NCBI RefSeq assembly: GCF_036971445.1
Contig: NC_091470.1
Span: forward strand, 333,374,001 to 333,438,000
Reading direction: 5' to 3'
DNA from: Narcine bancroftii
Taxonomy: Eukaryota
Length of the DNA stretch: 64,000 nucleotides
The position numbers were made by a program, and so were the translations under genes. The notes below the pieces were generated by a model, which saw nothing but the letters and a program-made list of their open reading frames with translations, did no database searches and was not told the DNA's origin. Below are positions 47,127 through 62,679 of this stretch, one piece after another; the first letter of the stretch is position 1, and each line of letters opens with the position of its first letter.

Positions 47127-47250
47127 TGGACCAACCCATTCACCGAGCAGTCCAGATTTTAGGATTTTTACTTTTACATTTCAGAAATGCCAAAAATATG
47201 TAAAAGTAAAGATCCTAAAATCTGGACTGCTCGGTGAATGGGTTGGTCCA
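47127..47250. repeat. Near-perfect inverted repeat: 53-bp arms, 1 mismatch, 18-nt spacer
   Basis: 47127-47179 is the reverse complement of 47198-47250. Confidence 0.95.
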
Positions 47251-53560: not shown

Positions 53561-54659
53561 ACAGTGAGCCAATAATCCACTAACGAATCCTAGCTGAAGA
53601 GAGAAACAAGTTTTGCATTCAGTGCACTATCTTCAGAGACTCTTATATCCTGGAGAGTTTGGATCTGGTCCATTCATAATAAAATCATTTAACTGTACAT
53701 AGAATGATATTTCTGTGACTTCAAACTGATGTATTCTGTGTTGTAATTTCATCAGCTTGGCAGCCTATTTTTGGATATGTCTGGTACTGTTCCTGCTAGC
53801 ATGTTCTTCTACACTCTTCAAGAAACCTTGGTTACATCCTTGGTATAATGCTAGTGGTGGGAAATATGCCATGCCGCACAATTCAATTCAGCTGTTATAA
53901 TTAGCTCTAATACACCCATATGCCAGACAGGAATGAGTCTAGTAAATCTTTGTTGCATTCCCTCCAAGGCAAGAACAATATTTTTTTCATAGAAGACCAA
54001 ATTGAACAGAAATGTGCCTCATGAATATCCTGCAGGTCTATAACGAGTGATCCTTGCTCCTTAACCAGTTGCAGGCCACAATAGCACCATTTCAATACCC
54101 TGGGAATAATTTATCCAAGTACACAAAAATGCTGGAGAAGTTTAGCAGGTCATGCAGCATCTTTAGAAAGCAAAAGGCAGACAACAATTTGGGCTTGAAC
54201 CCTTTCTTCTTCATTTTTATGATGTGGATGAAAAGTTTGCAGATGACACTAAGTTTGTTCAAGCTGTGGATGGCACAGCAGGATACAGATCAGCTTTAGA
54301 TATGGGCAGAGAAATGGTAGATGGTGTTTAATCTGGAGAAGAGTGGGGTGTTGCACTTTGGGAGGTCATTGTAAGGAGAACATACACAGTAGGACTCCAA
54401 AAAGCATTCTGATCTGGCGACCTGTGAGTTCTGGTTCACACATCCATGAAAGTGGCCGCACAAGTAGATAGAGTGGGGAAAAAATCATCCTTGCATTCTT
54501 TGGGTATAAAATTAAGGAAGTCATGTTGCAGCTACATAAAACTTTGGTAGCCCACACATGGGGTATTTCATGTAATTCTGGTTTCCTATTGCAAGAAGGA
54601 TTTGGAAAGGGTACAGAAAGATTTACCAAGATGTTGCCTGGATTAGAGGATTGGAGTCA

Positions 54660-55023
54660 TAAGGAGTTATTAGATAAACTTGGGTTGTTTTCTATGAAGC
54701 TTCGGAGGTGGCTGGGCAGTGAGCAGATAGAAACATAAAATAATGAAAGACATTGATAAGATAGAGAATTAGAAATGTTTACCCAGAGTAAAAAATGTCA
54801 CATACAAGAGGACATGCGTTTAAGGTGAGTGGGAGGGGTGGTAAGGAGTTATTAGATAAACTTGGGTTGTTTTCTATGAAGCTTCGGAGGTGGCTGGGCA
54901 GTGAGCAGATAGAAACATAAAATAATGAAAGACATTGATAAGATAGAGAATTAGAAATGTTTACCCAGAGTAAATAATGTCACATACAAGAGGACATGCG
55001 TTTAAGGTGAGTGGGAGGGGTGG
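54660..55023. repeat. 182-bp tandem duplication (1 mismatch) inside a CR1 fragment (about 54230-55230)
   Basis: 54660-54841 is repeated at 54842-55023. Confidence 0.95.
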
Positions 55024-59783: not shown

Positions 59784-59820
59784 TAACCCTAGCCCTAACC
59801 CTAACCCTAACTCTAACCCT
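59784..59820 (-). repeat. Short interstitial telomeric repeat, (TTAGGG) x about 6
   Basis: taaccc tagccc taaccc taaccc taactc taaccc t. Confidence 0.9.
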
Positions 59821-62071
59821 CTCCAGAGGCTGGTGCTCTGCTCTATGATGCCCTCCTCTAGTAGCCTACGCACCTCTGTCCTAATGAAGGCTCTGTCCCT
59901 CGGGCTGACCTCCTGCTCTTTGTGGCTATTGGTGTGCATTCTGGGGTCAGGTGTGTGAACAGTGGAGGGGGTTCTATGTTCAGGACAGTCAGGATGCAGT
60001 GTTGTTTCTTCGTAAGGCGTAGTGGGGGGATGAGGCCCGTTGTGCACTATTGTAATGCTTTCTAACTGGCACTGAAAATCTAACCCCAATACTACCGGGA
60101 CTCAGAGGTGAGGGAGTACTAGTAAATTGAACCCTTCATATTTTGTGCTCTGGATTTCTAGAGTAACCCTTCAAAACTGTTTTACCTTAGCCGCAAGGCT
60201 GCTGGCTGCTAACAGGATCTGGTGCTCACTCGGGTGTGTGGGGAGGGCAAGGCGGTTGACTAACCCCTGGTCAATAAAACTTTCAGTGCTTCCACTATCT
60301 ATTAAGCAATTTACCCTCACATCATTAATTTTGATGCACACAGTGGCATCAGATAAATTGTGTGGATTCGCCTGATTCATGCGTGGGGAAGCAAGTCTGG
60401 CGTGTCCTTCGTGTCCTTCCATCCTATAGTACTCGGTGTCATATTCACCTCCTGAAGACTGTGTCCTCTGCCCTGTAGCATTTGTCCAAGATGGCCGGCT
60501 GCACATGGCATTCTACTTCTTCCGTTTGTCTGTGGAGAAAGAAGAGCTTTCCTGCCTCTCATTAGCACGAGAATCGGCCTTGGCTGTGGCCTTGGGGCTT
60601 CTGAAGACTTTTGCATAATGCCCACGTTTTCCACAGTTGGAACAGACATTATCTCTGGCAGGGCAGAGGGCTCTGAGGTGCTTTCTTTGTCCACAGAAAA
60701 AAACACTTGGGACCCTCTGCTGCTGCTGTGAATTCCTGTGAGGTAGCGTACTTTTCTTTTCATGGGGCTAGAGAGTCCAGCAGTTTGTCTCAGTACCCCA
60801 GGGTCCTGTGAGTACTCCTTCAATTCTTTCCTGGACTTTCTAAAGCTTCTGCAATAGTCTCTGCCTTATCTAGCTCCACCATTCTTTTCTCCAGCAATCG
60901 ATGTCTTGTCTCAGTGAACCGTATGCCCGCAACAATTCTGTCCCTAATAAGGTCCTCCGCATACTCCTGAGCTGATACTGCTTTAAAGTTGCAGCCTCTC
61001 ACCAGTTCTTTCAGAGAGAGTATAAAGTCTTTGGTGGACTCCCCTACTTGTGGTGACCTGGTCATGAGCCTGTACCGGGAGTGGAGTTCGCTTTTCCCCT
61101 CACTGTAATGCCTCTGTAAAATGCTCATTGCCTCTTGGTAGGACCTGGCATCCTGTATAAGGGAGTAAGGGTGGTCTCCCAGCTGCGCTAACAACAGCAT
61201 AAAGAGCTCCTTATCCGATGCCTCAGCACCCTCCACATAATTCAGAAAGCATCTCTGCCAACAGCTGAAATGCATGCCGGCTCTGGGATTTCTGGGGTTG
61301 AGCTCCAGCCTGTCTGATCGCAGCACATGGCTAAGCCGCTGTCTCTGGTCCCTTAGATGTAGCAAGGGCAGACCCTGGGGTACTGGGAGCTACTGGTAGA
61401 GCTTCTTTGGGACTTGTGTCTGCTGGAGGAGTAACCTGGGTGCTTGGGGCTGTTGGCTGAGTCTCTAGCTTTGGGATGTTTGCAGCGGGCTTAGGGGGGA
61501 TCCCAGTGTAGCGTCAGGTCTCCCTGGTACTGGGAAAACTGCTGCTGGGGGAGTGATGGAAGCGGTGTCTGCTTTCCCTGGCTCTGAAGTGGTCGCGAAT
61601 ACACATATTTGGCGATCGGGAGCACAACTTGTGGAGATCCTTCCATCGGCGCTTGTAGTGGTCCCTTTCTGATCAGACCGAGGTTTAGGGTAGCGGCGAA
61701 CCCACGGGCAGGCATCTTACCTGCCCTATTGTACTTCTGTGTCACCATCTCTGTCCTCGGATGCACGTGTGTGCTGGTCGTCCCCAGATTCCATTCCTCA
61801 GGAAGAGTCTCCAGGTGGTCGGGAATGCACGTTGGAGCAGAAGCAGTTTCTATCCTAGTAGCTATCATATTAGTTTATTAAATTGTACTGACAATAACCA
61901 CACCAGCAGTATGAGTATAAGACAGTTTTAATAAACTAATATGTACACTAAGAGGTCTTGACTCTCTGCAAGATGCACCCAGAAAGCTAGACTGTAGCCC
62001 TGGACTGCTTTATATATGAGGTCACCAGGATGACCCCTGGTGACCTAGTGGTGTAATTACATATCACAACA
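59821..62071 (-). mobile_element. Gypsy LTR retrotransposon 3, 5' half only (LTR, gag, protease, start of RT), antisense in myosin intron 3
   Basis: LTR at 61884-62071 (TG...CA, TATA and ATTAAA on minus). gag LRSDRLELNP...DLIRDRIVAGI, protease CLIDSGSTESFI, RT start FIRTEVRRLLEEGIIEQSTSLWR, then an abrupt end. Confidence 0.9.
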
Positions 62072-62679
62072 CTTATAAAGTAATAATTCCACTAATTAGC
62101 AACATGGAACATGACAGGAACACGAGTTGAGTGAGGGCCGAGTCAGGTCATGTTTGGCATCAAACTCCATCTTTGATAAGCAGATGCCATCTACCAAAAA
62201 AAAAGTATTGGTTTTTGGAAGTTGCCAGTTTTTGAAATCATGGATAAAAGGTTAGGCATCTGTATGATATTATGTTAAATATGCAGCACTCTAGAGGACC
62301 TTTGGCCCACAGCATTTTGCTGACTTAATAATCTACTCTGCCTAGAATTTCTGAACAGTATAACCTTCCATTTTTCTCAGTTCCCTGTACCTATCTAATA
62401 ATCTCATAGAGCAAAGAAATGTGGTTGCCAAGGCAATAGGGCCATGATATCTTCACCTAGACAGTGGGTATGAGTAAAATTAATCAATGGGTAGATCAAT
62501 GAACTGAGAGGCTTTCAACTGCAAAGTGAACCTTTTTTTTAAGGCAAATGAATATCCAAAACTTCATTCTTAGCTTGTGAGGTTATTTTCAATTGATGTT
62601 ATTTGCAAATTTGAAGTAGAACATTTTAATCTGACCATGTGCTCTGTTTATTGCATTGCCCATCTCTGACTATTTCTAG

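Follow-up and report, generated by a model that had tools for sequence, protein, structure and literature searches.

Complementarity between the LTR and the primer-binding-site position suggests self-primed reverse transcription in a chromodomain-less clade of animal Ty3/Gypsy elements

We identified a clade of Ty3/Gypsy retrotransposons, represented by a decayed copy in the genome of the ray Narcine bancroftii, that probably primes reverse transcription with its own RNA and not with a tRNA. We put the probability of this reading, which comes from comparative analysis of LTRs and of the sequences that follow them, at about 80%. Self-priming itself is already known, and what is new here is its signature in a clade of animal Gypsy elements devoid of a chromodomain. 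Until now self-priming has been taken to characterize Tf1/sushi chromoviruses, with one plant Copia lineage predicted to share it. Our literature search returned no report of it in a non-chromovirus animal Gypsy clade, with the texts of Repbase and GyDB and key older papers lying beyond that search.

The DNA that we analyzed (the window) spans 64,000 nucleotides of contig NC_091470.1. The copy that it hosts lies on the minus strand and is composed of the 5' 2.25 kb, or the 5' third, of a decayed element (Table 1). To define the element we relied on related copies in the same genome, where a DNA search returned 2,403 candidates; 40 were scored, 30 loci were aligned and 20 were extended to 9.9 kb. 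All 30 aligned loci share the sharp LTR start, and the LTR's 3' end is set by the 3' LTRs of the sister copies, in which flanking DNA begins after ...GTCAGTACA. Perfect 5-bp target duplications surround 6 of the 11 sister copies inspected, a polypurine tract precedes their 3' LTR, and full-length copies measure approximately 4.9 kb. Stop-free stretches of the sister copies encode protease (PR), reverse transcriptase (RT), RNase H (RH) and integrase (IN) in Gypsy order, and the best solved relative is Ty3 Gag-Pol. With its TG...CA termini, target duplication, polypurine tract and PR-RT-RH-IN order, the element is a Ty3/Gypsy LTR retrotransposon. The window copy is dead. It is 86-87% identical to three sisters from the LTR start to its own end at 59819, and its broken gag region retains the same DNA identity (86-87%) to full-length sisters. 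The pieces of this region have no Pfam match, and no 3' LTR was found between 55001 and 64000. The copy breaks exactly at a TTAGGG-like run, as would fit a break healed with telomeric repeats.

Table 1. Coordinates of the features of the window copy and of its putative priming structure
Feature	Position	Strand	Remarks
5' LTR	61884..62071	-	188 bp, TG...CA
TATA-box-like TATATAAA	62009..62016	-	read from sequence; kept in most of 30 aligned copies
LTR segment complementary to primer site, putative self-primer	61927..61943	-	last six bases ATTAAA (61932-61927)
44-nt loop: LTR remainder, terminal CA, 1-nt spacer	61883..61926	-	predicted template of the first cDNA
Primer-binding-site position, without tRNA match	61866..61882	-	ends in ATG (61868-61866)
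Broken gag region	60820..61874	-	stop at 61491, more frame breaks
Gag-like stop-free stretch, 189 aa	61389-60820	-	
Broken zinc-knuckle/protease region and first RT residues	59819..60819	-	domains known from sister copies
Short TTAGGG-like run where the copy breaks off	59784..59820	-	

On the minus strand of the window, the LTR end ...GTCAGTACA is followed by one A and then by TTTAATAAACTAATATG, which occupies the position of a primer-binding site. This sequence is the exact reverse complement of CATATTAGTTTATTAAA inside the LTR (17 nt, 100%), and 44 nt separate the two arms. In 300 shuffles of the LTR that preserve dinucleotides, the number of paired nucleotides reached 9 at most and never 17. 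The perfect complement located one nucleotide after the 5' LTR, proposed by a sequence-only reading of the window, is therefore confirmed by the arms themselves, by the LTR ends of the sister copies and by the shuffles. The predicted fold, which includes the 17-nt stem, has a z-score of -5.75, to which another hairpin, in U3, contributes. The loop carries a G/T-rich stretch (approximately 61907-61890), and the primer-site arm itself holds a sense AATAAA (61879-61874). Nothing near the gathering score was returned by Rfam over 61700-62200. The U3 hairpin (12 bp, at 62019-62046) lies just upstream of the TATA box and is present in the family.

Any mature tRNA primer requires TGG at the primer site, and TGG is absent from the first 14 nt after the window LTR. 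We compared the primer sites with 27 distinct host tRNA genes, which represent 13 anticodons only, and all 17 clade loci match the 3' ends of these tRNAs over 2 nt at most; the best internal tRNA match of the window site is 6 nt. The same comparison assigned a 14-nt match to tRNA-Ser(GCT) in three of three Mag-like elements, used as a positive control. Moreover, the letters of the site change with each LTR, so that no fixed host RNA could match them all. Within this set of tRNA genes, we thus rejected tRNA priming, in agreement with the initial remark that the element has no TGG-type site.

The exact pattern of the junction between LTR and primer site occurs in 610 genomic copies (at least 610 junctions in the family), while a control pattern has no occurrence. 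Of the 30 aligned copies, 15 have a fully paired stem and the other 15 carry a single mismatch in it. Since these copies were picked for their likeness to the window, retention of the stem indicates inheritance and not selection. Nearby inverted pieces of the family's own LTR accompany several of its loci (L003/L032, L012, L013, L036 and L050). A further locus (L045:5060-8645, G000:C9) has 35.9 tandem copies of a 100-bp unit amplified from the 3' half of its 3' LTR, and the ATTAAA segment recurs in every unit.

The same arrangement is present, with different letters, in other families. A second family of the Narcine genome (L161-L180) has a 240-bp LTR with no DNA match to the window LTR. This family is very young: its LTR pairs are 96.8-100% identical in 16 of 20 regions, its gag-pol frames are open over approximately 1170-1500 codons, and its RT-RH is identical to a protein labelled Narcine bancroftii. 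Here the terminal CA is followed by one A and then by a 15-nt complement of an LTR segment whose last letters are AATAAAA. We also collected 80 metagenome loci and examined 41 that have sequence upstream of the match. For 21 of them we could locate the 5' LTR end (16 with the help of repeat pairs, 5 by eye), and the pairing occurs in all 21 (19 scored; L061 and L126 by eye). The other 20 either are truncated or offer no LTR end that can be placed, including one (L082) where a leader is present and the pairing was not found.

To compare families, we scored 14 of them, 2 from the genome and 12 from metagenomes, each represented by one hand-picked locus; two of these loci (L058 and L059) are closely related. 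The offset from CA is 1 nt in all 14 families, the loop measures 31-66 nt, and 11-14 of the first 14 positions form Watson-Crick pairs. On average, each primer site forms 12.9 of 14 pairs with its own LTR and 8.5 (maximum 13) with those of other families, a gap that is inflated because the register was optimised for own pairs. When only positions 5-14 are considered, the averages are 9.1 and 5.1 out of 10. In two almost identical copies (L063 and L070), the stems are distinguished by one two-sided change. The covariation of LTR and primer site, which the sequence-only reading had proposed as a check, is thus detectable across the 14 families: the letters vary and the complementarity stays. Since the same register recurs with different letters, what is conserved is the pairing. 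Longest perfect runs exceed those of all 300 shuffles in 15 of the 17 clade loci. The remaining two are older mismatched copies, where 64 (L084) and 1 (L123) of 300 shuffles reach the observed value, and which still form 12 and 13 of 14 pairs, respectively. Self-pairing is absent from all seven control elements, which belong to two other lineages of this genome; 137-297 of 300 shuffles reach their values.

The segment was initially described as part of the poly(A)-signal region of the LTR, and it was suggested that the fold may hide the 5' poly(A) signal. Folding predictions agree with this suggestion, since the hexamer is unpaired at 0.01 when the leader is included and at 0.21 (window) or 0.81 (young family) when the LTR is folded alone. 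However, only 6 of the 14 families have AATAAA or ATTAAA at the stem end. The last letters of the stem are ..TAAA in 11 of 14, and most of the families without a canonical hexamer at the stem end have one-off variants of it (GTTAAA, TTTAAA, GATAAA and others), with neither in L090. Two of these eight families (L057 and L059) do have a canonical hexamer, placed in the loop outside the stem. The near-constant ..TAAA/TTTA.. pairing may be the signature of a cut site no less than of a poly(A) signal.

These observations bear on an alternative that we regard as unlikely, namely that the duplex is regulatory only, hiding the 5' poly(A) signal or acting in packaging or translation, and that the primer is a tRNA fragment or another small RNA. 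The frequent coincidence of stem end and hexamer and the predicted occlusion are what such a duplex would produce, and the tRNA genes compared cover a limited number of anticodons. On the other hand, a fixed host RNA could not match primer-site letters that follow the LTR family by family. The constant offset from CA, the two families with the hexamer outside the stem and the short internal tRNA match of the window site also argue against it.

A regulatory role was proposed for the start codon as well, with the ATG of the first long open reading frame placed inside the stem. In the window, the final three letters of the stem are indeed ATG, whose frame in this copy stops after 124 codons, before the gag-like stretch. 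Within the window family, 23 of 30 copies have this ATG as the end of the stem and 7 have lost it; in 25, another ATG in the same frame lies 15 nt further on. The first ATG of the other families lies at or beyond the stem end. We therefore rejected the ATG in the stem as a feature of the clade; it is a property of the window family only.

Under self-priming, the LTR segment at the 5' end of the RNA would fold onto the primer site, and cleavage by the element's own RNase H after ...TAAA, the 3' end of the segment, would leave a 3'-OH; these steps and the following ones are modelled on Tf1. RT would then copy the 44-nt loop to begin minus-strand synthesis. The first strand transfer, to the 3' end of the RNA, would use the short stretch that separates the hexamer from the poly(A) site. 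The pairing begins adjoining the CA of the LTR, where a primer must end. Somewhat more speculatively, the same duplex may hide the 5' hexamer in the six families where the two coincide. Since the complement follows the 5' LTR only, it is the 5' hexamer that would be hidden. Equally tentative is the position of the primer, which might be an internal piece of R lying approximately 45 nt from the cap, and not the first bases of the RNA.

The latter suggestion comes from the TATA box, whose position suggests an RNA start near 61990-61985, approximately 45 nt upstream of the segment. It renders doubtful the earlier expectation that transcription starts at the beginning of the complementary segment. 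A TATA-like motif precedes the segment in only 3 of 15 scanned LTRs. None of the public runs found to contain the sequence is catalogued as RNA. Contigs of four presumed-RNA runs cover the whole LTR and both flanks, as DNA would, and no RNA start, end or poly(A) tail is found among the listed loose ends of these contigs. Two of the runs contain a strand-switch joint (61866/61944), which may stem from inverted genomic copies.

A second alternative, to which we assign a low probability, also has the element prime itself, with the primer supplied by the copy of R at the 3' end of the RNA or by a second packaged RNA; this 3' end would pair with the primer site and be cut after the hexamer. If the hexamer serves as poly(A) signal, LTR anatomy would indeed place the segment in R and hence at both ends of the RNA. 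Nevertheless, a fold in cis over 44 nt is strongly favoured, the loop length is kept within a narrow range, and a cut at the 3' end would lose the stretch needed for the first strand transfer. Very improbable is a third reading, in which the inverted repeat is an inherited by-product with no function, due to template-switch duplication or to a chance match of AT-rich DNA: both arms are AT-rich, TTTA(T/A)TAAA is nearly palindromic and cross-family pairs are already numerous, but the shuffles, the recurrence of one register despite changed letters in families that share only 43-70% of their RT-RH with the reference, and the lack of pairing in the controls together with the lack of any other primer site stand against it, and cross-family covariation has largely refuted it already.

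To place the self-pairing elements among Gypsy lineages, we searched proteins with the PR-RT region and retrieved 464 long relatives (E < 1e-40). The closest are in rays (Narcine and Hypanus, 60-71% identity), and the others share approximately 46-55%. Relatives are named from sea anemone, nematode, tunicate, damselfly and mussel, and a search with gag adds corals, crab, moths, beetle, bug and spider. These other species are known from proteins alone, and the evidence for pairing is composed of the Narcine families and the metagenome loci. No relatives were found in the viral contigs searched. We built an unrooted tree of RT-RNase H with 57 rows, without fungal or plant chromoviruses and after dropping one sequence that was too short (L052). 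Comparison groups were 14 fish chromodomain elements, 3 Mag-like and 3 Gmr1-like elements, labelled from their domains and motifs. The 37 clade members form one group (support 100/100) apart from the fish chromoviruses, Mag-like and Gmr1-like elements. Identity to the reference protein (P0005) is 43-83% within the clade, 30-35% for the chromoviruses and 24-27% for the others. The split between clade plus chromoviruses and Mag-like plus Gmr1-like elements is weak, with a support of 92/71 and long branches, so that self-priming may share its ancestry with that of Tf1/sushi.

The initial reading had judged that the gag does not look sushi-like, and the element as a whole is not sushi-like: it has no chromodomain, shares 30-35% of RT-RH residues with fish chromoviruses and belongs to a separate clade. 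Chromodomain and Tf2-type SH3 are absent from three of three full-length clade proteins, while the control P0139 has a chromodomain, and no chromodomain is present among the precomputed domains of the 120 listed relatives. The clade resembles the Mag/SURL-type control family in its short LTRs, single ORF and weakly similar gag (25%). It differs from it in RT-RH (26-27% identical) and in primer site, since the control has a TGG site with the 14-nt match to tRNA-Ser(GCT). Membership of the Mag lineage was ruled out on RT identity and on the lack of a TGG tRNA site, relative to one Mag-like control family labelled from its motifs. Three sets of loci in the same genome (L211-L214, L224; L215-L226; L227, L282-L287) comprise this young Mag-like family with its tRNA-Ser site, old Gmr1-like elements with integrase before RT and a few decayed elements bearing a chromodomain. 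The sushi-like copies of the genome are too degraded for their primer geometry to be compared.

Cigr-1 of Ciona intestinalis (Simmen and Bird 2000) reportedly has a single ORF of approximately 1200 codons, short LTRs, a capsid like that of echinoderm SURL-type elements and an RT nearer to sushi and gypsy. Members of our clade, compared with it by description only, have single ORFs of approximately 1050-1450 aa and LTRs of approximately 150-240 bp, and include a tunicate protein (P0085). Given its size and its gag and RT affinities, the clade may correspond to the Cigr-1 group. The name of the Cigr-1 clade (RepeatMasker class Gypsy-Cigr) is also applied to mollusc and annelid elements (PMC6238403, PMC8556966).

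Self-priming is described for Tf1/sushi chromoviruses in four reports (PMC7175516, PMC4600332, PMC5341516, bioRxiv 2022.12.06.519325). As in Tf1/Tf2 of Schizosaccharomyces pombe, Tj1 of S. japonicus and the Tf1/sushi group covered there, our clade combines the Gypsy domain order with the absence of a tRNA site and with a complement of the LTR after the LTR (PMC7175516, PMC4600332, PMC5341516, bioRxiv 2022.12.06.519325). Unlike Tf1/sushi, it has neither chromodomain nor Tf2-type SH3 and forms a separate RT clade, and its stem of 11-17 nt ends at ..TAAA, often a poly(A) hexamer. The primer of Tf1 is composed of the first 11 nt of the RNA, with RNase H cutting between bases 11 and 12 (PMC7175516), whereas that of our clade is possibly internal. 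A side helix right after the segment, like the 'pretzel' of Tf1, seemed real by eye and is not above shuffles (272/2000; one helix type). From LTR/primer-site complementarity, self-priming is also predicted for Tcn1 chromoviruses and for plant TAR elements (Houba, Osr-1) of the Ty1/copia group (PMC6317226). TAR elements are Copia and Tcn1 is a chromovirus, both of plants or fungi, while the present clade is composed of animal Gypsy elements without a chromodomain.

If the clade does prime itself, self-priming would be far commoner in animals than assumed, with proteins in rays, corals, mussel, tunicate, nematode and arthropods. This would bear on whether tRNA priming or self-priming is ancestral, and would free the elements from control by tRNA fragments. 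They would be overlooked or given lower scores by annotation tools for which a tRNA site is mandatory. A broader scenario, which we put forward as a tentative possibility, is that tRNA-free priming arose independently of Tf1/sushi in a Gypsy clade distributed across animals, with an internal primer cut from R at the hexamer and one duplex that both primes and silences polyadenylation in the 5' LTR. With an internal primer that ends at the poly(A) signal, short LTRs would have a new joint solution for priming and for suppression of the 5' poly(A) signal.

Elsewhere in the window, we observed a 53-bp inverted repeat (98%, 18-nt spacer) at 47127-47250 and a 182-bp tandem duplication at 54653-55016.
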